DNA of 64,000 bases from Candidatus Scalinduaceae bacterium (GTDB taxonomy: Bacteria > Planctomycetota > Brocadiia > Brocadiales > Scalinduaceae), in the NCBI GenBank assembly GCA_046759445.1, contig JBHICG010000002.1, forward strand, positions 32,001 to 96,000, written 5' to 3'. The translations under genes and the position numbers were made by a program. Below the pieces are notes generated by a model that saw only the letters and a list, made by a program, of their open reading frames with translations, was not told the DNA's origin and searched no databases. Below, one piece after another: positions 15,208-46,122 of this stretch; position 1 is the first letter of the stretch, and every line of letters starts with the position of its first letter.

Positions 15208-15283
15208 GGGCAGATAGCTCAGTTGGTAGAGCACGGGACTGAAAATCCCGGTGTGGTCGGTTCGATTCCGACTCTGCCCACCA
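15208..15283 (+). tRNA. tRNA-Phe (GAA)
   Basis: GGGCAGA/TCTGCCC acceptor stem, AGCTCAGTTGGTAGAGC D-arm, CGGGA-CTGAAAA-TCCCG anticodon arm, GTTCGATTC T-loop, encoded CCA. Confidence 0.97.
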
Positions 15284-18157: not shown

Positions 18158-18907
18158 ATGGATAGCAACTCTATCAAGAATCTTTTGGAAAAGGTAAAAA
18201 AAGGCGAGCTTACGATAGAAAAGGCATTACGTTTCTTTAAAGATTTTCCATACAAAGACCTGGAATTTGCCAAGGTTGACATCCACCGAACTATTCGCTG
18301 CGGGTTTCCTGAGGTGATTTTCTGCGGCGGTAAGACGCCTTCTCAAGTCTTTAATATTGCCGACCAAATCGTTAAAAACGGAGCAGATTTGCTGGCAACT
18401 CGTGCTAATAAAGAGATTTATGAGTATATTTCTCAGAAATATAAGACTGCGCGATATAATGACATTGCCAAAACAATAGTCATTCGAAAATCACGCCATA
18501 AGAAAAAGAAGGGTCTAGTCTTAATTATAACTGCTGGGACTTCAGACATTCCTGTAGCTGAAGAAGCAAAAGAGACAGCGGAAATAATGGGAAACAACGT
18601 AAAGGTACTTTATGATGTCGGAGTTGCTGGCATTCATCGCCTGCTTAAAAACAAAAAAGATATTTCAACTGCCAGGGTGATTATTGTTGTTGCTGGTATG
18701 GAAGGAGCGCTTGCCAGTGTGGTTGGTGGAATGGTTGATCGCCCCGTCATTGGCGTACCAACAAGTGTTGGATACGGTACAAGTTTTGGTGGAGTTGCTC
18801 CGCTATTGGCAATGCTGAATAGCTGTGCCGCTAACGTTACCGTCGTTAATATTGACAATGGTTTTGGAGCAGCTTATGTTGCGTCACTGATAAATAGTAC
18901 CAAATAG
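18158..18907 (+). CDS. larB: Nickel pincer cofactor biosynthesis protein LarB
   Basis: GFPEVIF, TAGTSDIPVAEEA, DVGVAGIHRL, AGMEGAL, PTSVGYG, NIDNGFGA. Confidence 0.9.
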   Translation: MDSNSIKNLLEKVKKGELTIEKALRFFKDFPYKDLEFAKVDIHRTIRCGFPEVIFCGGKTPSQVFNIADQIVKNGADLLATRANKEIYEYISQKYKTARYNDIAKTIVIRKSRHKKKKGLVLIITAGTSDIPVAEEAKETAEIMGNNVKVLYDVGVAGIHRLLKNKKDISTARVIIVVAGMEGALASVVGGMVDRPVIGVPTSVGYGTSFGGVAPLLAMLNSCAANVTVVNIDNGFGAAYVASLINSTK

Positions 18908-19042
18908 TGAGCGATTTACATAGATTTTCGATCAACCCATCAGATGTTAGCTGTGCAAAAATTACGCATTATATACTTCAAAACTTATTGATTCTATGGT
19001 ATAAAACATTAACTAGATTAAAAAATATTGAGTGAGTTCATA

Positions 19043-19477
19043 ATGATGGAAAAGATAAGAAATGATAAAATTTTAATACATAGATTATTGTCAGAAGCGC
19101 GTAAGGTTATAAAGTTTTCTTACTCACCATATTCAAATTTTCGTGTAGGTGCAGCAGTCTTAGATGAAAATGGCAAGATTTACACTGGTTGTAATATTGA
19201 GAATGCATCTTATGGGTTGGCAATCTGTGCAGAAAGGGTTGCTGTATTTAATGCTGTATCCCAAGGAGTTGAGAGAATAAAGGCAATTGCTATATATTGT
19301 GATAAACAGGATTTTTGCTCACCATGCGGTGCATGTAGACAGGTTATTTATGAATTCTCTAAGGATGCAATAGTTATTTTGGGAACTAAGGGAACTGAAT
19401 ATACTATAAAGACAATTGCTGAATTGTTGCCTTTGGGGTTTTGTCCCAAAGATTTAAGGCATCAAAATTTAGATTAA
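19043..19477 (+). CDS. cdd: Cytidine deaminase (homotetrameric type)
   Basis: SYSPYSNFRVGAA, GCNIENASYG, CAERVA, SPCGACRQ. Start uncertain (19028 TTG or 19043/19046 ATG). Confidence 0.9.
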   Translation: MMEKIRNDKILIHRLLSEARKVIKFSYSPYSNFRVGAAVLDENGKIYTGCNIENASYGLAICAERVAVFNAVSQGVERIKAIAIYCDKQDFCSPCGACRQVIYEFSKDAIVILGTKGTEYTIKTIAELLPLGFCPKDLRHQNLD

Positions 19478-19482
19478 AGTCT

Positions 19483-20268
19483 ATGGGAAAGGGTACAAAT
19501 AGAAGGAAGGTGCCAGAGGGATTTGGGGAGGAATTCTGGAAAGGATTTTGGCAAACAATTCAAAGTGTTTTAGAGATAATTAAAATTCTCCCCCTATGGC
19601 AACGTTTACTTGGAATACTTGCTGTTTTTGTCTTCATTATTGTTATTGTTTCTATAATAGCAATCGGTGATAGTACTGTTGTTATAGTCGGTCTTATTAT
19701 TTTTGGTCTCCTTATTTTGGTTTTAGGAGTTGCCAGTTATTTTCCAATTATTAGATTTAAAGCAGTTAAGAAGGAAATGACTAAGTTACCTAAAAACACA
19801 ATTTCTGAGCTCTTAAAAGGTATTACTATAAATGTATCAAGAATATTGAACATCCCAAATGAAAAACTTAGATCCAATATATTTATGCTTGATGAAAATG
19901 ATTATTTAAAAATTCCTAATGGACTCCATTATAACATCGGAACTCCTGTTGAACTTTCAATAAAAATTCCACCAGGGTACGGTAGCACAGGGAATGCATT
20001 TCTCAACAAAGAGCCAACTATTGCAATTCTCAAAGAAGACTGGGGCAAGTATATTCTTGATGATGTGGAAATGCAAAAAGTGGATAAGAACTTAGTGTGG
20101 ATTGTCTCAATGCCAATCCCCTCATCAGGGACTCTTGGTGAGATAATTGGAGTGTTGAATGTAGATTGTCTTAATCTAAAAAAGGGAAGGACTGATCTTG
20201 AAAGAATAGTTGATGACATGTGGTACTGGGTAAACTTAATATCACCCTTATTATTAAGAAAGGAGTAA
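19483..20268 (+). CDS. Two-TM membrane protein with C-terminal GAF-like domain
   Basis: Two hydrophobic helices, then GYGSTGNAF...WIVSMPI...IIGVLNVD (GAF-like pattern). ATG lies 5 nt after the cdd stop. Confidence 0.6.
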   Translation: MGKGTNRRKVPEGFGEEFWKGFWQTIQSVLEIIKILPLWQRLLGILAVFVFIIVIVSIIAIGDSTVVIVGLIIFGLLILVLGVASYFPIIRFKAVKKEMTKLPKNTISELLKGITINVSRILNIPNEKLRSNIFMLDENDYLKIPNGLHYNIGTPVELSIKIPPGYGSTGNAFLNKEPTIAILKEDWGKYILDDVEMQKVDKNLVWIVSMPIPSSGTLGEIIGVLNVDCLNLKKGRTDLERIVDDMWYWVNLISPLLLRKE

Positions 20269-20270
20269 CT

Positions 20271-20468
20271 ATGAAGTTGAAGGAAAAAACTCAATCAGAA
20301 CACTCTATAATTTACGTACCAGAGCATTTTGGGAGCAAGTCAATATCGGGGCCGAGCAGTGCTTTCATGGAAACGGTTAAGGAGATAAAAGCCTTAAATT
20401 TTGTTGGAAAATCTACTGATGAATTTATAAATGTATGCAAGCTCAATATTCGCAAAAGCCCGTCTTAG
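20271..20468 (+). CDS. Small hypothetical protein (65 aa)
   Basis: AAGGAG RBS just before ATG 20271, directly after the upstream stop. Confidence 0.55.
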   Translation: MKLKEKTQSEHSIIYVPEHFGSKSISGPSSAFMETVKEIKALNFVGKSTDEFINVCKLNIRKSPS

Positions 20469-20992
20469 GAATTGATATAGATAACGTTATTTCACAAACT
20501 GATACCACAATAAGGAAACTCATACAGCGTCGATATGGTATATCTCTTATGCAAGCTCATATCATACATTTTGATTATCACAAATGTGGAGTAAATAAGG
20601 AACAAGAGAAAGAGATATTTTCTTTATTTAATACCTCTGAATGCGAAAAATTAAAAGTCATCCCAGGTGCTGCAAGAGCCTTATCTATTCTTAGCAACAC
20701 TTATACGGTCATATTAGTAACGAGTAGGAATCCTTCTATAAAACAAAAGACCGAAGAATGGCTGCATACAAAAGGAATCCATTATGACGAACTTATCTTT
20801 AATGATAGAAAGCATGATATAGATGTCAATTTCGACTACTTTATAGAGGATTGTTGGGAATATTCGATAAAGCTGGCTGAAAAAGGCATAAAAGTTATCT
20901 TATACGACTATCCTTGGAACAGAAACAAAGGAACCTCCCCTAATATTTTAAGATTTAAAAATTGGAATGAAATCCTAATTTTTTTAACATAG
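20435..20992 (+). CDS. HAD-family 5'(3')-deoxyribonucleotidase (NT5C/YorS-like)
   Basis: GIDIDNV (DxD), VTSR, KTEEWL, FIEDC, YPWNR. Confidence 0.82.
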   Translation: MQAQYSQKPVLGIDIDNVISQTDTTIRKLIQRRYGISLMQAHIIHFDYHKCGVNKEQEKEIFSLFNTSECEKLKVIPGAARALSILSNTYTVILVTSRNPSIKQKTEEWLHTKGIHYDELIFNDRKHDIDVNFDYFIEDCWEYSIKLAEKGIKVILYDYPWNRNKGTSPNILRFKNWNEILIFLT

Positions 20993-21333
20993 GTACTATT
21001 TCTACGTTGTCCTAACTGTCTTCAAGCCCTGGGGAAAAATGGACAAATCCTATTTTTTTTAACAAATGATTCAAATGCTAAATATTTAAGCATTGCAAAG
21101 ATCGCAGTTACAGTGTTGGTATACCATATTACCCAAAAGAGGATAATAACGATATAAGAAAACATTTATTGTGTCTCTTCCTATAAATTTGATTTAAATC
21201 TATTACAACCCTCATTTCGTTGTATACTTATTTCTTTACAATCCCAATACTACTTACGCCTTGCTTTTTCAGTTTTTTCTTTGTACATTCAAGCACTTTA
21301 ATTAAGGTTATAGAATTTACGTAACGTTAAATA

Positions 21334-22616: not shown

Positions 22617-22829
22617 AATATTTAACCACAGAGAACACCGAGAGCACAGAGATACTTTATTGAAAGGATTAACAGGATTCAGACTGGACATTTGCGGACA
22701 GAGACCGCATCACCTCCCAATAGACGACCTTTGTTTAATACTAAAACTCCCTTGCCAAAACCTATGGCTGATTGAAACTCTACCGTCCACAAACCATCAT
22801 ACATTTTTATTTCCTCCATTTTACAGATT

Positions 22830-23663
22830 TCAATTTTCCAGTTTATTAACAAATCTCTTAATCACTTCAAAATATTCCTCACCACCCACTATATAAGTAT
22901 CGTTATGCGTGGCGCCAGGAATTGTATAGAATTCCTTTGGTTCATTGGCTGCCTCGTATAAAGTCTTTCCCTGTTCGATTGGTACAAGTTCATCTCTGTC
23001 TCCATGAAGGATAAGGACAGGTACTTTTACGTCCCTTATCTTCGTAATACAATCATATTTTGCCTGTAGGATATAGCCTACTGGTATGTAAGGAAAAAGG
23101 GTCCTTGCAAGTTCTTTCATAGACGTAAAAGGAGTTTCAAGAATCAGACCACAGCATTTTTCCTTTATGGCAAGATCAACGGCTACTGCGCTACCGAGGG
23201 AGCGGCCAAAAAACACAATCTTTTCATGATCTACGTCCCTTCTCGAAAGTAGATACTCAAGGGCTGCATTAGCATCAGTATATGTTCCCTGTTCAGATAC
23301 CTTGCCCTCACTCTTACCATACTGCCGATAATCAAAGATAAAGATATTTAAGGGCACTCTGTCGTATAGCATCTTTATGTTTTCGAGTCTATGGCTTATG
23401 TTTCCTGCATTGCCGTGAAACCACAGGAGTGTATGCAGATTGTTAGCAGTTAGAATTTCTGTTTTACCCGGGATAAACCATCCGTTAAGCTTCAGTCCAT
23501 CTTCGGTATTGAACGTGACATCATCATATTCAATACCCCAATCATCAGGTGTTGAATATACGTCTTTGTCCGGGTAGAAAATGAATTGATTTTCTATGAA
23601 GTCAGCACAACCCATTATAAATAATGTAGTGAAAACTAAGGATATTACATATTTCTTTACCAT
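22830..23663 (-). CDS. Alpha/beta hydrolase (BEM46/ABHD-like), probable lipoprotein
   Basis: FHGNAGN, GRSLG nucleophile, HGDRD, HND; IMGC lipobox. Confidence 0.88.
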   Translation of the reverse strand: MVKKYVISLVFTTLFIMGCADFIENQFIFYPDKDVYSTPDDWGIEYDDVTFNTEDGLKLNGWFIPGKTEILTANNLHTLLWFHGNAGNISHRLENIKMLYDRVPLNIFIFDYRQYGKSEGKVSEQGTYTDANAALEYLLSRRDVDHEKIVFFGRSLGSAVAVDLAIKEKCCGLILETPFTSMKELARTLFPYIPVGYILQAKYDCITKIRDVKVPVLILHGDRDELVPIEQGKTLYEAANEPKEFYTIPGATHNDTYIVGGEEYFEVIKRFVNKLEN

Positions 23664-23758
23664 TGTAATTAATACAGTTCATGAACTATGTTGTTGATTC
23701 CACATTACTATTCTTTTTCTGTGGATTTTTTAGTGGTGTTTTCATTGATAAGGACAAT

Positions 23759-24022
23759 TTATGTTTCCCTTTGAGTTCCTTGTTTAATATGATATGTAAT
23801 TTTGTTTTTATACATAAAAGGGTCTGTAGAAAAGCATAGATGAACATACTTTATCTTATTTCTATATTTTGGTATTTCTTTGTCCAGAAGCTCTAAAGCA
23901 TTGGAAACAATCTTAGGTTGACACCATTCTTTATTACTCATTATTTTTGTATATGCACTTGCATATTCCTTAATGATCTCTAATTTAATCTCGGACCAGA
24001 TTCCTATTTGGTCAAGTTTCAT
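23759..24022 (-). pseudogene. Chimeric remnant: TcmP-like N-terminus joined to a radical-SAM-like internal fragment
   Basis: DQIGIWSEIKLEIIKEYASAY resembles three-Cys-motif partner protein N-termini. PKIVSNALELLDKEI...VHLCFSTDPF resembles SPL-like radical SAM proteins. Far too short for either. Confidence 0.5.
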
Positions 24023-24076
24023 TACTATTTTGTTTATAGATTACTTATTTTTATCTTTTAAGCAAGGCTTGATCCT

Positions 24077-24092
24077 TTTTTAACGGTCGCTG
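24077..24092. repeat. 16-bp motif copy 1 (TTTTTAACGGTCGCTG)
   Basis: Direct repeat with 28311-28326 and 30257-30272. Confidence 0.85.
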
Positions 24093-24148
24093 GTATTATT
24101 ATTTTGCAACTCTAAAATGGAATAATTTTCCAATTTCATTTTGATCGT

Positions 24149-25750
24149 CTAAATCATCAAGCTATTGTAATACTTTTTTCTGTATTTCTGAAGAATAAAG
24201 CTATCCTTGCATGCTGAGCAGTTCTTTTGTGGAAGGGGTGAAAATTTTATCCAATGGTTGGGTCTAGAAAAGAGGTCATGATCTATGTAAGTGACATCTC
24301 CCTTTAGCGCTCTATCAGGAAAGATGCGTTCTTTAAGAATTTCTCCTCCAATGAGTATTCCGGGAAGAACCGCTGCAAAAGGTATTGGAACTATCAAAGA
24401 AGCCTGTCCCTCAAAACTCATTTGGCCGCAATGTAAAGATACCCAATCTGTAAAACGTTCTCCTAAAGATGGTAATGGAAATCCTAACCTACATTGGACT
24501 TCTTGCATTTGAGATATATGCCAGTCCTTAAAATATCCGTTATTATTACGCAATGTTTTTACTTCTTCGTATGGGAGTCCTATGAAATTTGCTAAATCTC
24601 TGTCTGGATCCTGCTTATTGTTATTTTGCAAGCAAACATGACAAGCAGTTAGACCCATTTCTACCCTTTTTACATAGAACCCTCTTTCTGCCACACCAGC
24701 ATCAAATATAATTCTAGGAAGGTCCCACTGAATTGCTTGTCGAGTTTCTAGGTTGTCAACGGTTGAAATAAGTAAATCGAAAGAATCGTACTTAGTGATC
24801 TTTGAGAACTCTAAATAAGTCTTTTTATAAGCATCAATTTCAAGGTTCGGAAATTGATCAAATAGTTTTCGTATTAGGTGGACTTTTGGCACTTTTTCCT
24901 TTGCATCTTTTCTGATGGCATATATATAACGATTAAGATTTGACAAGGTCACTTCATCTGGGTCTACCAAAACTACTTTACCTTGTAACTCAGGCAGACA
25001 TACAAGGCAATATAGACAAGCACCCCCTCCAGCGCCAACTCCAACTGTAAATACTTGCCCGAGATCAATAGTTTTAGGTAAAGTAGGGTTATCAGCATTT
25101 AACTTAATTTGTTCGTACGAAAAGAGAGAAAAGTGTATTTCGTCTTCAAGTAAATTCATTCTGGGTAGTTCGCTTGATTTAATACCTAAAGTTGTACCTT
25201 TATATTCTAAGACTCTTTTGAATATTTCGCTTACCGCCCAACAAGCAGTTGCCATAGCTCCTATTGGATTGAAGTTCGATGAAAATTCTCTGTCGTCACT
25301 TTTAGCCACTAGATGTACAAACCAACCGTCAGATGAGATTGAGACCATGTTAGGATGCCTTATACCTGTTTTTCCTATACCTATTAGTACTAATGGCTCA
25401 CAAGATAAAGAAGGCAAAATTCGAAGATTAACCCCGGTGGATATAATAGAAGAAAAATGGGTAACGGCTTCAGTTAGACTAGTATTATTTACTAAAGGGA
25501 TAGGGGTTATAAGTCTAGAATTTCGTTCAAAGATTACATAAATTTCTGTAATAATTGGATGAAGTCGTAATAAAAGGTTAAGAACTGTAAAGAAAGTAAG
25601 TTGACCATTTGGATTAACAGAAGCTTCTTTTCCTAATATTACTATTATAGGCGCAGGCACCTTAGCCCATCTATGAACTTCTTGTGGGGAAGATGGCATG
25701 AGCTGCCTAAGAAGTGTCATCGTCCTTAAGCACTCCTGTTCAGATTTCAT
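24149..25750 (-). CDS. E1-like ubiquitin-activating enzyme (ThiF family, BilD-like)
   Basis: N-terminal inactive-adenylation-like half (NPIGAMATACWAVSEIFK), GVGAGG, DPDEVTLSNLNRY, CHVC and CSAC Zn pairs, candidate catalytic Cys in LHCG. Confidence 0.88.
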   Translation of the reverse strand: MKSEQECLRTMTLLRQLMPSSPQEVHRWAKVPAPIIVILGKEASVNPNGQLTFFTVLNLLLRLHPIITEIYVIFERNSRLITPIPLVNNTSLTEAVTHFSSIISTGVNLRILPSLSCEPLVLIGIGKTGIRHPNMVSISSDGWFVHLVAKSDDREFSSNFNPIGAMATACWAVSEIFKRVLEYKGTTLGIKSSELPRMNLLEDEIHFSLFSYEQIKLNADNPTLPKTIDLGQVFTVGVGAGGGACLYCLVCLPELQGKVVLVDPDEVTLSNLNRYIYAIRKDAKEKVPKVHLIRKLFDQFPNLEIDAYKKTYLEFSKITKYDSFDLLISTVDNLETRQAIQWDLPRIIFDAGVAERGFYVKRVEMGLTACHVCLQNNNKQDPDRDLANFIGLPYEEVKTLRNNNGYFKDWHISQMQEVQCRLGFPLPSLGERFTDWVSLHCGQMSFEGQASLIVPIPFAAVLPGILIGGEILKERIFPDRALKGDVTYIDHDLFSRPNHWIKFSPLPQKNCSACKDSFILQKYRKKYYNSLMI

Positions 25751-26241
25751 ATTCGAATCTCCAAAGGTAAGATAATGAATCTTTTCTGGATTTCCTTAAC
25801 AGGCAATTTTCTCCACCATAGTTTTCCTTGGTACTCGTAAATATAACAATTCTTTGAAAGTTCCATTCCTGAAAGACAATAGTTCCATACAACTATTGAG
25901 ATGTAGCCAATATGAAAACTCACTGGATGCCTTTCATCACCTGTTGAATGTTCTACCTGGTTTGGGTGACTATGAACTTGCGCTAGTAAGGTTAAACTAT
26001 GCCTTGAAAGCTTAGTTACAAGTCTTATCAAATCGTTTTGCTCGAGAGAAACTCCCTCTCCCCACTCAGAACCCCCAACAAACATAGTGGTTATAATAGA
26101 AGATTCTTGTGCTCTTTTACCAGCCCAAAGTACAAGACCTTCTTTACCGATTTCCCCCTTTAGTTTTAAATACGCTTCTGTGCCAGATATTATCTTATGA
26201 GAGATATAGAATTTATTAGCTATGGCGGTAACTAACTTCAT
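25747..26241 (-). CDS. JAB/JAMM metallopeptidase (deubiquitinase, BilC-like)
   Basis: KEGLVLWAG and QVHSHP...HSTGD (E...HxH...S..D); ATGA overlaps on both sides. Confidence 0.87.
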   Translation of the reverse strand: MKLVTAIANKFYISHKIISGTEAYLKLKGEIGKEGLVLWAGKRAQESSIITTMFVGGSEWGEGVSLEQNDLIRLVTKLSRHSLTLLAQVHSHPNQVEHSTGDERHPVSFHIGYISIVVWNYCLSGMELSKNCYIYEYQGKLWWRKLPVKEIQKRFIILPLEIRI

Positions 26242-26666
26242 TGATAAGCTTTGTCCATTTCAACTTGAATATCTTCTAATACCTTAGATAATAAATATTT
26301 CTTTACATTCCAAGTATAGTTAGTATGTAGAATCTCATGAAACTCTCTAATGCCTGGAATACACAACTGTGGTGGATTACGCCCCAGCGCAGCCTGAAAG
26401 GCTGATCCTAGTTTTGGCCAGAATTGCTTCCCTTCTTGCCTAGTCTGTGGATCAACAAAAGTAAAAGCAGGAGCTCTTTGTGGGTATCCCTCGTAATATA
26501 AGCGTGCCATAAATTTTAAGGTTGGACTCTTTTTAGGATACATAAGTACATATACATATAACCCCTCTGGTGTTACCTTCCATCCGTGATAAATAAACAG
26601 GTTATTATGCGCTTGGAGACAATCTAATTGTTCTTGAATTTTGTGACTAATAACTTCACTTTCCAT
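26238..26666 (-). CDS. E2-like ubiquitin-conjugating protein (BilB-like)
   Basis: GYPQRAPAFTFVDP (UBC YP..P motif) and LCIPGIREFHEILH...W (catalytic Cys plus His). Confidence 0.8.
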   Translation of the reverse strand: MESEVISHKIQEQLDCLQAHNNLFIYHGWKVTPEGLYVYVLMYPKKSPTLKFMARLYYEGYPQRAPAFTFVDPQTRQEGKQFWPKLGSAFQAALGRNPPQLCIPGIREFHEILHTNYTWNVKKYLLSKVLEDIQVEMDKAYQ

Positions 26667-26920
26667 TAGATCACCACTGCACCAAGAGGGGTTAGAATAA
26701 GCGTAGCACCGTTTGGCACATTTGATTCGCCGATAGTATCATCCTCAGACAGGGGATTACCATTGAATATTAAACGATAGTTGTCCGCTTGTGACGGATC
26801 GATCCCCAACTTAGCCATAGTAGATACTTTCAAAGCTCGAATAGGTTGGTTCGTATTTACCTCAACTTCTAAAGGCTGTTCTGTTGCCGCAGATTCAATT
26901 GTTAGTATAAGTTTTTCCAT
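26666..26920 (-). CDS. Single-domain ubiquitin-like (beta-grasp) protein (BilA-like)
   Basis: 84 aa; YRLIFNGNPLSEDDTIGESNVPNGATLIL matches the ubiquitin RLIFxGxxL.D..TL..YNI...L.L pattern; AGGAGG RBS. Confidence 0.87.
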   Translation of the reverse strand: MEKLILTIESAATEQPLEVEVNTNQPIRALKVSTMAKLGIDPSQADNYRLIFNGNPLSEDDTIGESNVPNGATLILTPLGAVVI

Positions 26921-26999
26921 TGCATTTCCTCCTATTTAACTTAAATTAAAAATTTTTAATTTTTCATTAATCACGAGATAGAACTTGAAAATATAGTAG

Positions 27000-27096
27000 T
27001 TAATAAATATTTAACCATAGCTTAACGTACCTGTCAAGGGAAAAATTTACTAATAGTTAATTATTTATTGACCTATCTTTCACAACTCGTTATACT
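27000..27096. promoter_or_regulatory. Back-to-back divergent promoters with phased TTAA boxes
   Basis: + strand TTGACC(27068)-N17-TATACT(27091). - strand TTGACA (27037-27032) with a weak -10. TTAA at 27000, 27011 and 27022; TTTA/TTAA at 27046 and 27057. Confidence 0.6.
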
Positions 27097-27124
27097 TTAT
27101 GCAATTAAGGAGACCTAATAAATA

Positions 27125-27472
27125 ATGGAAGACCAACTTGCCAAACGAATTGGACATCGCATAAAGAGCAAAAGAATTGAACGCAATATAAATCAAAACA
27201 AATTGGCTGAGAAGGTAGGTATAAGTCCCGCAGCAATAAACCAGTTTGAGAAAGGAGAAAAGAAACCATCGTCCGATGTACTCACTAGGATCGCAAAAGA
27301 ATTAAGTGTCTCCACTGACAGTCTTCTTACTGAAAAGGGGGATGAAATTTTCGTAGATGAAGAGGTTAAAATAGCTTTTAGAGCATTCAAAAAGTTGGAA
27401 AAAGGGGATAGAGACATAATCGTAAAGAATATACAATTTCTTAAAGAACAAGCGAAAAGAAAAGGAAAATGA
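27125..27472 (+). CDS. XRE-family HTH transcriptional regulator (CapH-like)
   Basis: NQNKLAEKVGISPAAINQFEKGEKKPS HTH_3 pattern; AAGGAG RBS. Confidence 0.9.
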   Translation: MEDQLAKRIGHRIKSKRIERNINQNKLAEKVGISPAAINQFEKGEKKPSSDVLTRIAKELSVSTDSLLTEKGDEIFVDEEVKIAFRAFKKLEKGDRDIIVKNIQFLKEQAKRKGK

Positions 27473-28248
27473 ACATAGCAAAACTTTACGCAAAAGATCT
27501 TCTCATAGAATTTGAGAACTTATCTTTACCTATAAATCCAAAGAAAATTGCTGAGGCTAAAGGGATTATAATTAAAGAAGATGATCTAGAAGGCTTTAGT
27601 GGTATGTTGCTTAAGGTAGGCAAAAGAACTCTTATTAGCGTTAAAAGAAGCATAAGAGAAAGAGGGAAAAAGAGATTCACACTAGCCCATGAACTAGGGC
27701 ATTATCTTTTGACTAAACACTTAACACCTTCAGATATCTCATTTGAATGTACTGATGAAGACATACATCATTTCGGAGAAAAAGATAATAAAGAGTCAGA
27801 CGTGAATGCATTTGCAGCAGAGTTACTTATGCCAGAAGAATTTTTCAGAGAAAGAATTAGGTTAAGCGATCTTACTTATGAACTGATAGATAGTCTTACA
27901 AAAGATTTTGATACCACACTTACGGCTACTGGTAGAAGATTTGTGGAACTTAGTTCTTCATATGCATTAGTTTGTTCTCAAAATTCTAAAATAAAGTGGT
28001 TCCTTAAGGGAGAAGATTTTCCTTATTATTTGTACTCTTCAGGTACCGTAAGCGAATCTTCGGTTGCCATAGATTTTTACTAGAGAAAAAAATTACCTAC
28101 TTGTTTTGAATTGGTACCTGCAAACGCTTGGATTGATGACAACAGAATAGAGGACATGGAAATCTTGGAAATGGCTATACCACTTCCATACTATAATCAG
28201 GTTTTAAGTTTTTTAAGCATTGATAATTCCAATGAAGATAATGACTAG
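27469..28248 (+). pseudogene. ImmA/IrrE-family Zn metallopeptidase (CapP-like), interrupted by an in-frame TAG at 28081-28083
   Basis: RFTLAHELGHY (HExxH), NAFAAELLMP. The frame continues 54 codons past the TAG (RKKLPTCFELVPANAWIDD...EMAIPLPYYNQVLSFL) to TAG 28246-28248. Confidence 0.8.
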
Positions 28249-28310
28249 TAGACCCAAGTCAGACTTCTACTGATAAATTGCCTAAAATCGGCCAATTAAG
28301 CATAATACAT

Positions 28311-28326
28311 TTTTTAACGGTCGTTG
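28311..28326. repeat. 16-bp motif copy 2 (TTTTTAACGGTCGTTG)
   Basis: One mismatch to copies 1 and 3. Confidence 0.85.
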
Positions 28327-28444
28327 TCCCTAGTTTGTATAAACTTATAGAAAGGCTAATAAACCTCTGTTTCACTTGTCTATCGTATGATGGACATGTA
28401 TAATTTGATGAGTTATGGGGTAAGAATGCTACAAAGCAAAAAAC

Positions 28445-28473
28445 TTGACTCGTTATTCCAATGGTGATAAAAT
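28445..28473 (+). promoter_or_regulatory. sigma-70 promoter of the papain-like gene
   Basis: TTGACT-N17-TAAAAT with extended TGn. Confidence 0.65.
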
Positions 28474-28512
28474 CTTTAATACTTTCCTTAAAGTTCACCC
28501 ACTAGACCTATC

Positions 28513-29964
28513 ATGTCTATCCTTAACAAAGCAGAAATAGTAAATATTAAAAATGAAGATGATTGGATGGATGTTTTGTCTTCATGCGAAGGCCATTTAT
28601 CAATAAAAGACTACCCCAAGATATCTGAATATTTATCGAATAATATCAAGACAGTATTTATTGAAAAAGATTATATTGATAAAGATTTTCGAGATACATT
28701 TTATAACTTCTATTCAAAAAAATTCGCAGATTACCCCAACAAGGCTATTAGACTTCACTTTTTTACTACCCTTATTAGCAACGATGACATTTATGATTTA
28801 GACAAGTATCAAAACCATTATGTTGGTTTTATAGTTATAAGGCCTACAAGAATTAACACAATAGGTAGAACTATTTTAGATCCTTCTAAAATATCAAAAG
28901 CAGGCGGATATATTTGCTCTACAGATTATAAAGTCCATATTCTTGGTGCAGAATTAAATGTTAATGGGTTTCCTTACATAAGCCAAGACACAGACGTTAC
29001 TGTTTGTGCTCATGCCGCTTGTTGGATGGTTTTTAGATATTTCAGTGAAAGATATCCAACTTATGCAGAGATTTTACCGTTTAAGATTTCCCAATTAACA
29101 GAAAACCTTTCTTATGGCAGACTTGTTCCATCAAAGGGGTTATACCTTTCTCAAGTTGCAGAAATATTTTCAAAGTTCGGATTTTATCCTGAAATTTATA
29201 TTAAAGCTCAGTATCAAGATAATTTTGACAGGCTACTTTATTACTATATTGAATCGGGTTTGCCAGTAGTTGCTGGACTTAGCAGACATAATCATGCAAT
29301 AACAATCTTGGGCCATCTTTCTAATTATGAAAGATCTGTTTCAAATAACAGTGTAGAATATGTTGATGGTCTTATAATTAATGATAATAATCATCTCCCT
29401 TACCAAAAACTTTTAAGAAGTAATCTTAAAAAAGAAGGTTACTGTTCAAAGTATCACTTTGAAGATATAGATAGCTTTATCGTTCCCCTGTATGAAAAAA
29501 TTTACTTTTCTGCCGAATATGTTGATGCTATGGCGGAAGCTTTGTTAGATGACACACATTTTGGTATTAACGCTTTGTCTCAGCTTGTAAAGAAAAACAA
29601 CATTATAAAAAGAATATTTCTTACATCTTCTAAGTCCTATAAAATACAAAGAAGAAAACAAAATTTACCTTTTAATCTGTCATCGACATACTGTGGAATG
29701 AATATGCCAAAGTTTATTTGGGTATGTGAATTATCCACCTCAGAATTTTACTCAAAAGGTGAAATTATAGGTGAAATTATTTTTGATGCTACAGCAAACC
29801 ATATTGATACATTCTGTTTTTTGGTTATACATTACCCAGACTTTATAGTATTTAATGATAGAAATTATTTGACTTATAATCCAGAAAGGTTTATAAAGGG
29901 CACACTTAAAACAAAAGATTTGCTATCATATCAATTATATAAAAATAATCTAAAGGAGATATGA
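28513..29964 (+). CDS. Papain-fold (C39-like) cysteine peptidase-like protein
   Basis: PYISQDTDVTVCAHAACW (Q...C), GLPVV...HAITILGH (H), IINDNN (D/N). Confidence 0.65.
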   Translation: MSILNKAEIVNIKNEDDWMDVLSSCEGHLSIKDYPKISEYLSNNIKTVFIEKDYIDKDFRDTFYNFYSKKFADYPNKAIRLHFFTTLISNDDIYDLDKYQNHYVGFIVIRPTRINTIGRTILDPSKISKAGGYICSTDYKVHILGAELNVNGFPYISQDTDVTVCAHAACWMVFRYFSERYPTYAEILPFKISQLTENLSYGRLVPSKGLYLSQVAEIFSKFGFYPEIYIKAQYQDNFDRLLYYYIESGLPVVAGLSRHNHAITILGHLSNYERSVSNNSVEYVDGLIINDNNHLPYQKLLRSNLKKEGYCSKYHFEDIDSFIVPLYEKIYFSAEYVDAMAEALLDDTHFGINALSQLVKKNNIIKRIFLTSSKSYKIQRRKQNLPFNLSSTYCGMNMPKFIWVCELSTSEFYSKGEIIGEIIFDATANHIDTFCFLVIHYPDFIVFNDRNYLTYNPERFIKGTLKTKDLLSYQLYKNNLKEI

Positions 29965-29965
29965 T

Positions 29966-30139
29966 ATGTCAATTATGAAATTTCCACCAATGGAAGAAAA
30001 AAAAGGATTTTTAGATACTAATGAAAAGGTTCATGAGGCTTGGTGTTCTTTAGAAAAAGCAACGGAGAAAGATTATAAGAAATACGATGAAGCGAAAAGG
30101 GCTGTACAAGAAATATCCCAAACTAAACTTTTAGACTAA
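29966..30139 (+). CDS. Small hypothetical protein (57 aa), not in ORF track
   Basis: AAAGGAG RBS; ATG 1 nt after the upstream stop; MSIMKFPPMEEKKGFLDTNEKVHEAWCSLEKATEKDYKKYDEAKRAVQEISQTKLLD. Confidence 0.6.
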   Translation: MSIMKFPPMEEKKGFLDTNEKVHEAWCSLEKATEKDYKKYDEAKRAVQEISQTKLLD

Positions 30140-30256
30140 GATTAAAACGAAGAAATTATTTCCCATAAAATAACAGTTCGGTCTTACATTTAAATTAATC
30201 AACTCACTTCTCAAAGATTTCAATTGCTTGGTTTATGCTTATATCCCATCGTAAGA

Positions 30257-30272
30257 TTTTTAACGGTCGCTG
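30257..30272. repeat. 16-bp motif copy 3 (TTTTTAACGGTCGCTG)
   Basis: Identical to copy 1. Confidence 0.85.
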
Positions 30273-30329
30273 TTGTATATGCTCAGTAATTAAGTAACTC
30301 TTTTGGTATAATAAATCAAAAACATTTTT

Positions 30330-30530
30330 CTAAGACAGAATCATCCTTTCAACTTTGGTTTTTGCTGTTTTAATAATTTTTTTTGCTTCTTCTTGTAACT
30401 TTTCTGCATTTTGCATTCATTCATTAACTTCATCTACGATTTTTTGCTGAATATTTAGAGATGGGATTGGGATCTTGGTGGTATTCAATAATTCAACATT
30501 TACCCCTGACTGATTATTCCAATTTGTACA
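30330..30530 (-). pseudogene. Type I R-M specificity subunit (HsdS-like) C-terminal remnant
   Basis: NQSGVNVELLNTTKIPIPSLNIQQKIVDEVNE*MQNAEKLQEEAKKIIKTAKTKVERMILS*: IPIP.L..Q.KIV motif plus coiled coil, with an internal TGA. Confidence 0.65.
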
Positions 30531-30866
30531 TATAGTAAAAAATATCTTATGTTTTTGATATATATTTAGAATTATTGTTAAGTATTCTGGGCAAAATAGG
30601 GCCAATAAGAGAAAGGAAATAAATTACGTTTTTATTGCATAACATTTTACTTAAGCTAACTGTAAATTAGTCATACCTTTCAATATTTTATCTCCTTCCA
30701 TTCTACATTTCTTTACTGCAGTTAGGGTTCATTCTTCCAGCAATGTTTTTGTCTAAAATAATTTCTCTATCCAAGTTCTGTAAGTTCTTCAATTACTTTT
30801 AAGTCTGTATCTGTGGCTTCGTTAATATTTGGCATATTAATACACACTCATCTTTTTTGTTGAGGC

Positions 30867-31032
30867 TTACTTTTCTATGATATCTTCTGTGGTTGTGAAA
30901 ATAGCTCCAGCATCTTTCATTTCATTCAGTGCTTCTTCTACCCTCTTCGTTAACAGCCTTAATCGCATCTGTAACCAGTGAAACTTTGTACCCACGTCTT
31001 AGCAGTTCAAGGATGGCCACCTTAACACAAAA
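30867..31032 (-). pseudogene. Isochorismatase/nicotinamidase C-terminal remnant
   Basis: FCVKVAILELLRRGYKVSLVTDAIKAV, then a frameshift to EEALNEMKDAGAIFTTTEDII. Confidence 0.6.
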
Positions 31033-31130: not shown

Positions 31131-31346
31131 TTAATAGTTCTTGTTGTGACATTTATCGAGACGCTTCAAGAGCATTTTTTTGAATTCTTTTTCTGAAAGA
31201 TTCGGAAATCTCTTACGTAATCCATGAATAAAAAGTTTATTTGCAAATTCGGACAACTCAAATGCCTTAAGCAACCTCCTTTCAGGTGACATTTTACGAA
31301 GCACTTGAATGTATATCTTATGATTTGGACGTTCTTTAATATTCAT
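31131..31346 (-). CDS. Small putative antitoxin-like protein; overlapping downstream partner truncated
   Basis: LRKMSPERRL...GLRKRFPNLSE pattern of small proteins that precede nucleotidyltransferases. The overlapping ORF 31152-31033 starts MSQQELLKRVIQV and then degenerates. Confidence 0.5.
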   Translation of the reverse strand: MNIKERPNHKIYIQVLRKMSPERRLLKAFELSEFANKLFIHGLRKRFPNLSEKEFKKMLLKRLDKCHNKNY

Positions 31347-31425
31347 ATTTGATAAAGTTCTTTTAAGGCTTCTTTTTCTCTTTCTTCACTAACAACTTTA
31401 ACTGTTCCACAATATTTTATCACTT

Positions 31426-31806
31426 CTATAACTGTTTTTTTAACCATTTTAGAACCTCTTTGCCTTTTTCAAATATTACCTTTGTTTTCTCTTTATCATA
31501 GTCTTTTAGCATCTTCTGGAGGTCGTCTGGATAATATGGGAAGATTCTCATCTTATTCAGGGCAGAAATAGTATCAGAAAATTCTTCAGGAAGCTTTAAG
31601 TGAACTTTTTCAATGAGATACGGTAGATTGTTTGTGTTTAAGGGTATTGCGTTGAATTTCTTCTGATAAAGCCCTTTAAGGGCTTTTTCAATGGAAAGAT
31701 GGCACAGAAATACGGCATAAAAATACCTTTCGGCCTTAAGCATATACTCGGCAGTATCCATATCGTAATCAGCCTGACTCAGCCATTCTTCAGGTTTTTT
31801 TGCCAT
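31426..31806 (-). CDS. HEPN-domain protein (HEPN-MNT type), degenerate motif, partner truncated
   Basis: EWLSQADYDMDTA...FLCHLSIEKALKG; the usual THNL reads TNNL. The overlapping ORF 31447-31343 (MVKKTVIEVIK...) is only 34 aa. Confidence 0.75.
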   Translation of the reverse strand: MAKKPEEWLSQADYDMDTAEYMLKAERYFYAVFLCHLSIEKALKGLYQKKFNAIPLNTNNLPYLIEKVHLKLPEEFSDTISALNKMRIFPYYPDDLQKMLKDYDKEKTKVIFEKGKEVLKWLKKQL

Positions 31807-32072
31807 ACTTACTCCTATCCCTTAGATTATGTGTATGTATATTTGCAAATCTTTTTTACAGTATCGCTCTACCGAAAAAGCGATTTTATAAAAAGCCCCG
31901 TTTATATAAGATTGTAATATACTTGTTTCGATTTGTAAACGCAGAGTTTTTGAGATGAGATTGCGAATAGATATGGCTATCTGGGATAATCTCTAAGACC
32001 ATAGAATTAAAAAGGAAGAGAGTGGTCTTTTATCCTTAGGAGACAGTGTTTATTATGTGGAACTTGTCGCTA

Positions 32073-40872: not shown

Positions 40873-41427
40873 GGCAGAGTGTAAGTTAGCTTGATTATTC
40901 TCTCTAAATTCATCGGCCTCTTTGATGATCCTTTGCCACTCAGTTGGTCCCGTTCCAGAATATAAGCCTTGGATTTCCCCGTATATTTCCCCAGAAATAC
41001 AGACTAACAGAAATGAATCAGCCCTTGATATCGAGTCGGCTGGAACTTGGACTCTACCATTATCTATTTCGATGTAGATGGAAGAATTGCGTATCTTGAA
41101 GAGATCGCCGTCTCTAAACCATTTGGCAAACCTTGATTCCTCTCTGCCATAGATACGCTTGACTCGCGCATTCACTTCGAGTGTCATACCAACCGCATAT
41201 ATATACTTCTGCTCATGATTATAGAAACTTCTCTTATCAAGTTTGCCTGAAAGATCCTTATTGCCAAGTATGATTATCTTACCCACCTCTTCAATGAGAG
41301 TGATGGCAAAGAAAGAAGCAAGAGCAAAATCATTCTTCTCGTAGAAACGGCGAGCTAATAACCAATACTTCTCTAGGTGATCTCGCGCCCCTTGCGGTAG
41401 AGAGATAGGCTTAGTATGGATATCCAT
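40870..41427 (-). CDS. AbiV-family (HEPN) abortive infection protein
   Basis: ASFFAITLIEEVGK, FYNHEQK, IRNSSIYIE. Confidence 0.72.
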   Translation of the reverse strand: MDIHTKPISLPQGARDHLEKYWLLARRFYEKNDFALASFFAITLIEEVGKIIILGNKDLSGKLDKRSFYNHEQKYIYAVGMTLEVNARVKRIYGREESRFAKWFRDGDLFKIRNSSIYIEIDNGRVQVPADSISRADSFLLVCISGEIYGEIQGLYSGTGPTEWQRIIKEADEFRENNQANLHSA

Positions 41428-45777: not shown

Positions 45778-46122
45778 TGTCGATTTCTTTCTTCTAACAT
45801 TTACTTTTATATTTATTTTATATTTCTCAGCGTGTTATCGTAGTACGTGTTGGATATCAAGCTCAAACCGATAGAATTGTACTGGGACATAAATATAGAC
45901 AGCGACTGTTTTACCTAAACCAGTTAACCGTCATTGTACTAACTCAATAATTCGGTAATAAATTTTAGTCTTATATGCTCTTTTATAATAGTGTTATAGT
46001 AAAAAAAAGTTACCTATTTACTGAGCATATACAGCTGTACCTATTTATTCACCTAGCAAACTCAGTCTCTCTTGAAAAATCTTGAGCAATTATTTCTGTA
46101 CTAGTTAAAGCTAATTCACTCA

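Follow-up and report, generated by a model that had tools for sequence, protein, structure and literature searches.

What is a short sequence that recurs, always in one orientation, in the gaps between the modules of a bacterial defence island? The window analysed here, a 64-kb stretch of a Candidatus Scalinduaceae genome, raises this question with three copies of a 16-base motif, which a first-pass annotation had placed between credible genes, with unrelated flanks, and had read as crossover sites of a cassette-capture system. The motif, TTTTTAACGGTCGYTG, lies at 24077-24092, 28311-28326 and 30257-30272, all on the plus strand. Our scan of the whole window, allowing up to two mismatches, returned exactly these three matches, each with no mismatch to the degenerate pattern and each intergenic, as the annotation had it. 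The chance expectation is 0.05 copies in the window (dinucleotide shuffles), and three or more copies were found in 0 of 100 shuffles. The flanks are indeed unrelated: they cannot be aligned past the motif, except for one extra 5' T common to copies 1 and 2, and those of copy 1 are unique in the genome.

The island and its edges hold the following genes and remnants:

23759..24022, minus strand: 87-aa ORF with weak sub-cut-off matches, TcmP-like and PDC-M41A-like
24149..26920, minus strand: Bil-type ubiquitin-like conjugation defence operon (Pfam and PADLOC), made up of the next four genes
24149-25750, minus strand: E1/BilD (Pfam ThiF; PADLOC BilD 1e-18)
25747-26241, minus strand: JAB/BilC (PADLOC BilC 9e-14)
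26238-26666, minus strand: E2-like gene, Bil-type operon member
26666-26920, minus strand: Ubl (Pfam ubiquitin)
27125-27472, plus strand: CapH-like HTH (PADLOC capH 3e-17; Pfam HTH_3)
27469-28083, plus strand: CapP-like M78 peptidase (PADLOC capP 4.5e-50; Pfam Peptidase_M78), with CapH a regulator pair (27125..28083)
28513..30139, plus strand: module 2, a 483-aa protein without family match (28513-29964) and a 57-aa gene (29966-30139)
30417..30605, minus strand: remnant of HsdS, type I restriction specificity (Pfam Methylase_S, E 1.2e-4)
30853..31030, minus strand: 3' remnant of an isochorismatase-family gene, at the right edge of the island

Pfam and PADLOC thus uphold the Ubl-E2-JAB-E1 and HTH/peptidase modules of the first-pass annotation, while its papain-like label for the 483-aa protein is not confirmed, because neither Pfam nor PADLOC nor NCBIfam gives a match for this protein. 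The gene pair of module 2 recurs in metagenome locus L136 (75% nucleotide identity), where the motif is absent, as it is from all the close relatives of this module that we found (6 metagenome loci, 75% being the best identity). The 87-aa ORF probably represents a longer gene of which the N-terminal part remains; its PDC-M41A match (PADLOC, 5e-5) covers residues 7-32 against a 281-position model, and it scores 18 bits with NCBIfam TIGR04474 against a cut-off of 53. Similarly, the HsdS remnant scores 22.8 bits against a cut-off of 22, the match being limited to profile positions 107-147. In relatives, the isochorismatase gene is intact (198 aa; Pfam Isochorismatase, 1.4e-30) and directly adjoins an alpha/beta-hydrolase gene. 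We searched 91 other genomes of the order and found the island as a whole in none of them. Aligned relatives place its edges at ~23677 and ~30853, that is, 400-600 bp from the motif copies, and this, like the motif-free relatives of module 2, does not support the reading of the motif as a crossover site. No recombinase was found among the 19 ORFs of the island and its flanks that we scanned.

Copy 1 lies 57 nt beyond the stop of the BilD/E1-like gene, copy 2 between CapP and the 483-aa gene, 187 nt upstream of the latter, and copy 3 118 nt past the 57-aa gene. All three have the same orientation, each stands at the right-hand end of a module, and no inverted partner was found adjoining any of them. 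It had been remarked that copy 2 runs on into TGTCCC; this is correct and led us to the full repeat, TTTTTAACGGTCGYTGTCCCTAGTTT (28311-28336), whose outer part is missing from copies 1 and 3. On the other strand, this repeat of ~21-26 nt reads TAGGGACAGCGACYGTTWWA from the outside in. Its inner half is the 16-base motif, and the whole is a terminal inverted repeat (TIR) that flanks small HUH/tyrosine transposase genes. The members in the window are:

24077..24092, minus strand: copy 1, inner half of the TIR unit, CAGCGACCGTTAAAAA outside-in on the minus strand
28311..28336, minus strand: copy 2, complete TIR unit, TTTTTAACGGTCGTTGTCCCTAGTTT on the plus and AAACTAGGGACAACGACCGTTAAAAA on the minus strand
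30257..30273, minus strand: copy 3, TIR unit that an insertion-sequence end cuts after GCTGT
45894..45910, plus strand: fourth member of the family, degenerate and oppositely oriented, TATAGACAGCGACTGTTTT on the plus and AACAGTCGCTGTCTATA on the minus strand

Copy 1 is without the outer 6 nt, TAGGGA, its GCTG being followed by GTATTA. Copy 2 departs from the family consensus by one substitution, a T at 28324, where runs X3 and X4 (two other samples) have the canonical C. The 45-nt left flank of copy 3 recurs together with a complete TIR unit in an unrelated context in another genus (G014:C119). The fourth member accounts for a 10/11 inverted match reported at 45900-45910, which is therefore real.

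A scan of the whole genome, which the annotation had proposed, showed that the motif is not confined to the island. With up to one mismatch allowed, the genome yields 13 copies of the 16-mer and none of a reversed control; for the 17-mer AACGGTCGCTGTCCCTA, with up to three substitutions, the counts are 43 and 4. The union of the searches comes to 47 copies, 42 of them outside long ORFs: the centres of only five fall inside ORFs of at least 100 aa, although such ORFs make up 80% of the genome. Outside-in, the full unit of about 21-26 nt reads (AAAnTA)GGGACAGCGACYGTT(WWAA). Gene-less TIR copies are scattered as solos, direct doublets (on contigs C6, C14, C25 and C50) and a few inverted doublets (C92), nearly always in intergenic positions and mostly downstream of functionally unrelated genes; Pfam matches of 28 ORFs near them include restriction enzymes, NAPRTase, ETF, metallo-beta-lactamases and TPR proteins, among others. 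Contig ends lie within 2 kb of 18 of the 47 copies, against 15% expected. The island is dense in copies, with three in 6.2 kb against ~0.08 under an even spread, and the sole other group of three in 6.2 kb adjoins a transposase gene. A short tandem duplication starts from the outer end at 9 of the 47 copies, against 204 of 20000 random places.

Enzymes encoded near other copies had been proposed as a further check, and here the repeat proved to flank a Y1/HUH transposase gene, not a recombinase gene. On C86, a 222-aa ORF (128-796) is bracketed by inverted TIR copies at 70 and 792, and on C19 copies at 40941 and 41666 enclose a frameshifted transposase gene; partial transposase copies on C16, C61, C50 and C8 carry the expected arm on whichever side is present. 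The gene is multi-copy, with ~5 close copies plus fragments (72-100% identity) and four matches at E<=1e-40 in this genome (G000). Its 222-aa product matches Pfam Y1_Tnp (E 1.1e-14) and reaches 78.9 bits with the NCBIfam model of the REP-associated tyrosine transposase (REP_Tyr_transpos), just below the cut-off of 80, and 19 bits with transpos_IS200, whose cut-off is 55. The best structure match of a profile built from 24 homologues is E. coli TnpA-REP (4er8, E 3e-6), followed by IS200/IS605 transposases. The 24 homologues all keep N59, H60 and H62 (HUH motif) as well as Y119, and a C-terminal extension of ~95 aa is conserved among them; none of the 24 matches the C-terminal HTH domains Bac_DnaA_C, HTH_23 or HTH_28 (Pfam, E<=1).

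The association of gene and repeat is widespread. Near-full-length homologues were compared at 50 loci (Planctomycetota, Nitrospirota, Desulfobacterota, Omnitrophota, Alphaproteobacteria and others); at 43 of them the gene is flanked by inverted repeats that carry a G-G-G-A-C-A(G) core, mostly at ~33-48 nt on the upstream and 0-30 nt on the downstream side. In the 84 arms that we aligned, G12, C14 and A15 are invariant and the GTT positions vary (ATT, TTT, GTT). GGGGWSAS is present in 23 of these arms and NGGGWSAS in a further 57, with AGGGACAG, the core in this genome, agreeing at 7/8 positions of GGGGWSAS; a GTAG/CTAC tag was seen in a single arm. Within the order, a transposase of at least 67% identity occurs in five other genomes (G014, G015, G018, G037 and G051), and each of them contains 2-14 motif matches. 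The motif was also found without a transposase match at E<=1e-40 in G058 (16 matches) and in G016, G049 and G003 (3-5), where the missing transposase may be an unassembled gene, because these are incomplete draft genomes; the homologues of G001, G002 and G023 are only 38-54% identical. Altogether, the Y1/HUH gene between inverted copies, in this genome and at 43 of the 50 loci, supports what the annotation had listed as an alternative, a HUH/RAYT-related end motif. We conclude that the motif is very probably the inner half of the TIR of small mobile elements that encode a RAYT-like Y1 (HUH) transposase.

These results bear directly on the annotation's main proposal, in which a tyrosine recombinase acting in trans would use the GTT core as an integron-like crossover point for cassette capture. 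The minus strand, CAGCGACC-GTTAAAA, does fit the GTTRRRY core at 6/7 positions, the copies stand at the 3' ends of modules in a common orientation, and block boundaries in X3 and X4 (see below) count in its favour. However, what is conserved across phyla is GGGACAG, the GTT part being variable in the 84 arms, and the repeat flanks a Y1/HUH transposase gene, not a recombinase. An attC-type hairpin is absent (fold energy ~0), the copies are dispersed singly over 47 sites and not in arrays, the modules lie on both strands with their own regulators, and the relatives of module 2 are without the motif. We hence consider this proposal extremely improbable. Because it is a transposase-flanking end repeat with ~47 scattered copies, the motif represents a selfish repeat of a known kind rather than a cassette-capture site. 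An apparent new cassette-capture system is thereby struck off, its site being an end repeat that belongs to a known class of HUH elements on which there has been hardly any work.

Copy 3 is split by an insertion sequence that specifically targets the TIR repeat, two ends of which lie in the window:

30274..30322, plus strand: left-end remnant, ~50 nt long, of a multi-copy insertion sequence, TGTATATGCTCAGTAATTA...
46003..46033, minus strand: second end of the same insertion sequence, abutting the TIR-like AATAGGTACAGC

In G002, G018 and G014 the left-end remnant is matched over 48-58 nt at 98% identity; it also shows raised depth and loose ends. In other genomes this left end runs into a ribosome-binding site and a transposase-like ORF, whose recovered portions (80-126 aa) have no Pfam or NCBIfam match. 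The end of the insertion sequence lies inside the TIR repeat at 7 of 9 convincing sites in the genome, and also in several relatives, the insertion position being after ..GCTGT or ..ACAGC within the GGGACAGCGACC core.

The same insertion sequence weighs on another reading of the copies, in which they would serve a transcription factor as a common operator or promoter box through which the island modules are co-regulated. Extended -10-like sequences (TGGAATAAT, TGGTATAAT) are indeed located 25-35 nt downstream of copies 1 and 3, and the distance of copy 2 from the 483-aa gene, 187 nt upstream, could suit such a role. Nevertheless, the -10-like sequence past copy 3 is part of the insertion-sequence end, copy 1 points into the 3' end of a convergent gene, copies genome-wide are mostly downstream of unrelated genes, and the association with a transposase is kept across phyla, so that a regulatory box is a very doubtful explanation.

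Could TIRs nevertheless have moved the modules? In X3 and X4, the alignable part of an island ~97% identical to ours begins at 24087, inside copy 1, and ends at 30260, at the start of copy 3; the island contigs run unbroken through copy 2. Coverage of the island in these samples is only 2-6x and the boundaries are taken from alignment extents; beyond 30260 the X3 contig continues with 201 nt of unlike sequence. This one result is in keeping with the boundary idea of the annotation for the whole 6.2-kb block (24087-30260) in X3/X4, though not for single modules. A reported joint of 23931 to 30270 in X3 is out of register with the copies and has one 30-nt side in a multi-copy insertion-sequence end and a depth of 29.6, so that it stems from another locus or organism.

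An account by mobilisation would take directly oriented solo TIRs as live ends, with the Y1/HUH enzyme moving the DNA on the body side. A purely passive repeat does not predict the X3/X4 block between copies 1 and 3, and the side to the left of the motif (plus orientation) behaves as the body of an element: G001:C64 has the 163-nt left flank and TIR of G000:C6 at 92% identity, with the outer end of its TIR joined to DNA found on another G000 contig, and G014:C119 has 45 nt of the left flank of copy 3 with a complete TIR. The single orientation of the three island copies, each closing a module at its right, and the outer-end tandem duplications, which suggest repeated nicking and rejoining at those ends, point the same way. 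On the other hand, the X3/X4 break points are out of register (after motif base 10 in copy 1, after base 4 in copy 3), were obtained at low coverage and come from contigs that cross copy 2 without a break, and the X3 joint is out of register as well as from another locus or organism. The six closest relatives of module 2 are without the motif, copies 1 and 3 are truncated, the island edges in relatives are ~400-600 bp away from the copies, and breaks in similarity at five other copies mostly mark the end of a conserved gene, as expected at any intergenic site. We judge such mobilisation unlikely, and equally unlikely the modes by which it would stack TIR-closed defence modules, that is, same-strand double nicking at two copies or one-ended, rolling-circle-like transfer. 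If true, an anammox-type genome would stack TIR-closed defence modules, in a HUH-enzyme counterpart of gene capture by ISCR elements and integrons.

Returning to the end-repeat explanation, we asked whether the repeat folds. The window copies have no stable fold (predicted DNA hairpin energy 0 to -0.3 kcal/mol, z-scores above 0), and with inverted partners absent this agrees with the annotation, which had seen no attC hairpin. The gene-flanking arms reach -1.0 to -2.7 kcal/mol, none beating shuffles at z<-1.1. Covariation of a 7-bp stem across homologues is 0.177 against 0.091 in shuffles (0/500 shuffles reach 0.177), yet the register slid by +1 pairs nearly as well (70.4% against 71.9%). Because the window copies do not fold and the slid register pairs almost as well, a REP-like hairpin is not established.

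IS200/IS605 TnpA and E. coli TnpA-REP serve as the analogues from which we infer recognition, nicking and spreading: the transposase would act in trans and recognise the conserved GGGACAG core on single-stranded DNA, its candidate site carrying TAGGGACAGCGACYGTT. It would nick at the core through its HUH and Tyr residues, and copies would spread or be rearranged as a result. The three island copies are solo TIRs between the genes of a locus that is decayed and variable, where they are likely hot spots of insertion and rearrangement; they have no demonstrated role in the function of the defence genes. For the study of TIRYT action, the system offers a 21-nt site whose GGGACAG core is kept across many phyla, several copies of the gene, 47 copies of the repeat in the genome with micro-duplications at one end, and an insertion sequence homing to this very site. 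Should the block boundaries of the second population hold up, TIR repeats would also be shown to shape defence islands.

Compared with known systems, the repeat resembles an integron attC site as a short site at the 3' ends of modules, in one orientation and with a GTT-containing stretch. It differs in having no R''-L''/L'-R' hairpin, array or adjacent integrase, in that its conserved part is GGGACAG and not the GTT core, and in that its enzyme is a HUH transposase. IS200/IS605 elements need differing subterminal hairpins without TIRs, whereas here the ends are inverted copies of one sequence. Classical REP/RAYT systems are reportedly treated by Nunvar (2010). As in REP/REPIN-RAYT systems (Bertels & Rainey 2011, PMC3116915), the repeats are short, extragenic and mostly downstream of genes, flank a Y1/HUH transposase gene in inverted orientation and are presumed to spread in trans. 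However, the GTAG tag is present in 1/84 arms and there is no stable palindrome; copies number tens rather than hundreds, mostly as solos or direct doublets instead of inverted REPIN doublets; and the classical RAYT gene is single-copy and vertically inherited, while several transposase copies are found here. The GTAG-tagged stable stem-loop in inverted doublets that marks classical REPINs was not found, the one inverted doublet being that on C92. The insertion sequence is akin to those that target REPs (Tobes & Pareja 2006, PMC1525189), such as ISPpu9 (PMC12288879), in its repeated insertion at one position within a short dispersed repeat, although its target is a TIRYT-type TIR and not a REP hairpin.

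The closest system is that of Di Nocera 2013 (BMC Genomics 14:522, PMC3733652), who describes RAYT-like transposases flanked by GGGGWSAS TIRs, TIRYT being the enzyme and TIRtron the gene with its two inverted TIRs, and TIR families that are moderately abundant and occur as singles, dimers or groups. Most TIRYTs belong to subclass 2.1 of TnpA-REP (Quentin 2018, PMC6006769), for which C-terminal HTH domains (Bac_DnaA_C, HTH_23 or HTH_28) are given that Pfam did not detect in our 24 homologues. Our element also differs in its core (AGGGACAG, 7/8 GGGGWSAS positions) and in its multi-copy transposase gene (~5 close copies or fragments), and the repeat-targeting insertion sequence and outer-end micro-duplications are not mentioned in the available portions of these two papers (PMC3733652, PMC6006769). 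It shares with TIRYT/TIRtrons the RAYT-like Y1 transposase with HUH and catalytic Tyr, the gene bracketed at short fixed distances by TIRs instead of GTAG-tagged REP hairpins, the GGGGWSAS-type core in the TIR, and TIRs that form a moderately abundant dispersed family of singles, doublets and groups. In these respects the element matches the published class.

The 16-base motif TTTTTAACGGTCGYTG occurs exactly three times in the window when up to two mismatches are allowed, at 24077, 28311 and 30257 (copies 1, 2 and 3), always on the + strand. Chance predicts 0.05 matches, and three or more were obtained in 0 of 100 shuffles of the 64-kb sequence. The flanks of the copies cannot be aligned with one another. 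This agrees with the first-pass annotation, which had described three copies in one orientation with unrelated flanks, and had read them as crossover sites of an integron-like cassette-capture system, with an HUH/RAYT-related end motif or a regulator box as alternatives.

Across the genome, an assembly of 3.62 Mb in 145 contigs with 37% G+C, the 16-mer at no more than one mismatch yielded 13 copies, compared with none for the reversed control. In most genome copies, window copy 2 included, the motif continues as TCCCTAGTTT; a search with AACGGTCGCTGTCCCTA allowing three substitutions recovered 43 copies against 4 for its reversed control, and pooling both searches gives 47. The centres of 5 of these 47 fall within ORFs of at least 100 aa, which make up 80% of the genome. 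Moreover, 18 of the 47 are found no more than 2 kb from a contig end (15% expected), as is usual for repetitive mobile DNA at which assemblies break. Read in the + orientation, the DNA to the left of the motif forms subfamilies, and that to the right is unrelated among copies. Whole units are doubled directly on C6, C14, C25 and C50. A TAA inside the repeat (gTTAaaa, complementary strand) is the stop codon of three ORFs (C31:32874-35207, C99:6604-6975 and C45:24279-24506), so that the last codons and stop of a 777-aa type ISP restriction enzyme, for example, come from the repeat. The copies at C95:6358 and C123:1229 share a different continuation, CCTGCCCGACGrTTwGTkTGGCGrGCC, with a G+C-rich stem that at C95:6358 is followed by a T run, giving it the look of a terminator.

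On contigs C19 and C86, two copies of the repeat face each other about 720 bp apart with a 222-aa ORF between them, frameshifted on C19. The 222-aa protein matches Pfam Y1_Tnp (PF01797, E = 1.1e-14) and scores 78.9 bits with the NCBIfam model of REP-associated tyrosine transposases (cut-off 80), and only 19 bits with the IS200 model (cut-off 55). Searched singly against solved structures the protein gave no match at E≤0.01; the profile of 24 homologues alone reached E. coli TnpA-REP (4er8, E = 3e-6), its best solved structure, with IS200/IS605 transposases ranking behind. The HUH histidines H60 and H62 and the tyrosine Y119 are invariant in 24 of 24 homologues. By tblastn, the genome holds about five close copies or fragments of the gene (C86, C16, C19, C61 and C50), further fragments on C8 and C77, and at least ten distant Y1-transposase paralogues (25-45% identity). 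One distant paralogue lies on the window's own contig, outside the window, at C2:115138-115773. The repeat stands on every present side of each transposase gene copy, the downstream arm on C16 being degenerate at its outer end. That inverted copies bracket a Y1/HUH transposase gene supports the annotation's alternative of an HUH/RAYT-related end motif.

Other candidates were rejected. When 11 loci that contain the motif were compared with Rfam at E≤1, the single match was a sub-threshold one due to chance (Dicty class I RNA, 27 bits against a cut-off of 41.5); the motif does not correspond to a known RNA. A tRNA as integration target was dismissed, the single tRNA of the window being at 15208. 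ORFs of a possible leader peptide or start signal in the motif complement and ATTATGCC span 5-14 codons and are unconserved. Repeats of the type III toxin-antitoxin kind, prompted by a 36-nt doublet on C6, amount to two units only, in a family tied to a transposase; Tn7, Tn3 and IS630-type ends were superseded by the transposase between inverted copies.

A scan of one genome per species found 80 loci with transposase relatives, the closest of which, 87-97% identical, come from MAGs that bear the label Candidatus Scalindua. The flanks were analysed at the 50 loci with near-full-length matches. At 43 of them inverted repeats with a G-G-G-A-C-A core lie on either side of the gene; the other seven comprise one with an unrelated palindromic inverted repeat and six without any. 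All 84 arms from the 43 loci align gap-free to AAATAGGGACAGCGACCATTT, with G12, C14 and A15 invariant and five further columns at least 90% conserved. Among 61 genomes of the order, this one included, the motif ACNGTCGCTGTCCCTA is present at no more than one mismatch in 26, and a transposase match at E≤1e-40 in 14. All five other genomes whose transposase is at least 67% identical carry 2-14 motif matches. Motif matches also occur without a transposase match at E≤1e-40 in G058 (16) and in G016, G049 and G003 (3-5), draft MAGs in which absence of the gene is not implied; the draft MAGs G001, G002 and G023 have distant transposase homologues only.

The motif seen in the window makes up the inner half of this terminal inverted repeat (TIR). 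Its copies stand among the following features of the defence island and its edges.

22830-23663, alpha/beta-hydrolase gene
23759-24022, probable gene fragment
24077, copy 1, ending after GCTG
24149-25750, E1/BilD, module 1, Bil-type operon
25747-26241, JAB/BilC, module 1, Bil-type operon
26238-26666, E2-like gene, module 1, Bil-type operon
26666-26920, Ubl, module 1, Bil-type operon
27125-28083, CapH/CapP-like HTH and M78-peptidase pair, module 1
28311-28336, copy 2, complete TIR with one substitution
30257, copy 3, ending after GCTGT, then TGTATATGCTCAGTAATTA...
30274-30322, insertion-sequence end
30417-30605, HsdS remnant
30853-31030, minus strand, last ~180 bp of an isochorismatase-family gene, all that the window holds of it

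In a sister population, sequenced in runs X3 and X4 from two other samples of the same study, copy 2 has the canonical C at 28324. Copy 3 runs into one end of a multi-copy insertion sequence, whose terminal repeat of about 31 nt, TGTATATGCTCAGTAATTAGGTAACTCTTTT, also lies at 46003-46033, near a degenerate fourth copy of the motif (45894-45910). In G002, G014 and G018 this end leads to an ORF (MQYSQQ...) preceded by a ribosome-binding site; the ORF, recovered over 80-126 aa, had no match in Pfam or NCBIfam. Of about nine convincing ends in the genome, seven directly adjoin ..GCTGT or ..ACAGC within a TIR-like core, consistent with a 5-bp duplication of ACAGC; the sites outside the window are C6:88262, C8:66415, C28:128, C29:14937, C31:30825, C54:22417 and C65:17836. 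Several sites in relatives (L034-L039) likewise have the insertion sequence inside the repeat. Insertion sequences that target REPs are already known (PMC1525189).

Module 2 consists of a 483-aa protein and a 57-aa gene. The gene content first described for the island stands as regards the Bil-type operon, the HTH/peptidase pair and the 57-aa gene; the label 'papain-like' is unconfirmed, since the 483-aa protein matches no Pfam, PADLOC or NCBIfam family. In the genus-g2 relatives G006, G014 and G017, an intact isochorismatase-family gene of 198 aa stands 50-260 bp beyond the alpha/beta-hydrolase gene. This adjacency defines a segment specific to the genome under study, ~23677-30852, which includes the probable gene fragment, the insertion-sequence end and the HsdS remnant; as only the 3' remnant of the isochorismatase gene is left, the island replaced its 5' part. 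All five loci that relatives have in synteny lack the motif. A search of 91 further genomes of the order (three candidates scored per genome) yielded no island DNA except for a 67% identical match to the CapP region in G016; plasmids gave no match to the island, and no BilD relatives were found in viral contigs. A second genome-specific segment, 18908-21330 (~2.4 kb, ORFs 19028-20992), is absent from G006, where homologues of 18356-18908 and of 21330 onwards adjoin. On the minus strand at 31131-31806, a HEPN-domain protein (126 aa, Pfam 3.5e-21) lies beside a 71-aa gene, the two probably forming a pair of toxin-antitoxin type; in X3 and X4, other organisms carry homologues of the 71-aa gene at higher depth.

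One observation speaks for the cassette idea. Contigs of X3 and X4 (depth 2-6) carry the island at ~93-99% identity. In either run the alignments start at 24087, and their end is at 30260, beyond which an X3 contig has 201 unlike bases, so that the common block is bounded by copies 1 and 3. However, its ends, known from alignment coordinates alone, are out of register, after motif base 10 in copy 1 and base 4 in copy 3, and the alignments run uninterrupted across copy 2. Uncovered stretches (e.g. 22817-23133, 30425-30741 and 31376-32000) are, at 2-6x depth, no sign of absence. The single reported joint, 23931 to 30270 (X3, depth 29.6, side 30), does not keep the register of the motif copies and falls in the end of the multi-copy insertion sequence; we read it as another locus or organism. 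No joint between two motif copies was seen in the X3 and X4 contigs, a result of little weight because contigs drop rare forms. Against the cassette idea, four search patterns detected no motif copy in the six metagenome loci most closely related to module 2, of which L136 is the best (75% identical over 28538-30108, in a different gene context). Distant module-2 homologues (29-35% identity) occur in 6 genomes out of 400 others from the phylum, at loci with chance-level core matches at two mismatches only. Furthermore, Pfam assignment of 28 ORFs next to 16 other copies gave mixed neighbours (10 of the 28 without a family match): restriction or defence-type genes at four sites (C31, C45, C6 and C99) and, at the others, housekeeping-type genes (NAPRTase, ETF, metallo-beta-lactamases, a response regulator and others). 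With 47 dispersed copies, a transposase link and module-2 relatives devoid of the motif, our results do not support the cassette-capture reading.

The repeat does show signs of movement. G001:C64 carries the left flank and TIR of C6 at 92% identity, its outer end joined to DNA that in the genome under study is found on C45, and in G014:C119 an unrelated gene pair is followed by 45 nt of the left flank of copy 3 and a complete TIR. These loci show that TIR-ended pieces move, with their body on the left of the motif; they do not show whole gene modules riding along. When a further five TIR sites were set against five relatives, similarity usually stopped at the end of the conserved neighbour gene, within ~30-50 nt of the TIR, a comparison that does not discriminate, because intergenic sites in general would give this picture at ~80% identity. 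We consider it improbable that the HUH enzyme moves adjacent defence modules by means of directly oriented TIRs.

Beyond the observed architecture, conservation, catalytic residues and dispersed extragenic distribution, the action of the transposase can be modelled on IS608 TnpA and E. coli TnpA-REP, which nick single-stranded DNA. By this analogy, the enzyme would nick single-stranded DNA at the conserved core and spread or rearrange copies in trans, the TIR sequence TAGGGACAGCGACYGTT being its putative target. Cleavage at GGGA↓CAGC (complement GCTG↓TCCC) would account for both the shortened copy 1 and the micro-duplications. Independent breaks at GCTG↓TCCC, a possible clue to the nick site, are found in the copy 1 truncation, in degenerate outer ends on C16 and in short tandem duplications (period 8-16 nt). 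The latter begin precisely at the repeat's outer end, (G)TCCCTA..., for 9 of the 47 copies (C16:850, C16:51382, C19:40941, C25:32156, C49:21083, C50:146, C50:1838, C55:1726 and C117:1252), compared with 204 of 20000 random places.

A hairpin in the repeat is not established. Predicted DNA fold energies are 0 to -0.3 kcal/mol for the window copies, no better than shuffles, and -2.7 and -1.0 kcal/mol for the gene-flanking arms on C86. For a 7-bp stem (AAATAGG/CCTATTT), 71.9% of cells in the alignment of 84 arms are paired, compared with 65.8% after shuffling and 70.4% when the register is slid by +1; its covariation score is 0.177 against 0.091 shuffled, a value reached by 0 of 500 shuffles. Arms of one locus are not independent.

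RAYT-like genes in which long terminal inverted repeats replace GTAG REPs have been described as TIRYTs, and their units as TIRtrons (Di Nocera 2013, PMC3733652), with a common GGGGWSAS motif and similar gene distances (PMC3733652). Most TIRYTs were placed in subclass 2.1, with the consensus GGGG[AT][CG]A[CG] (Quentin 2018, PMC6006769). The C-terminal HTH of that subclass could not be confirmed for our family, as 0 of 24 homologues match it in Pfam at E≤1; the C-terminal extension of the protein measures ~95 aa. The family resembles TIRYTs in its RAYT-like gene inside terminal inverted repeats, in its GGGGWSAS-type core and in the near absence of GTAG: 23 of the 84 arms contain GGGGWSAS, 57 more NGGGWSAS and one the GTAG tag, and the core version of this genome, AGGGACAG, fits GGGGWSAS at 7 of 8 positions. 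On the strength of this arm architecture and motif match, we class the repeat as a TIRYT-type TIR family, of a kind that is known though little studied.
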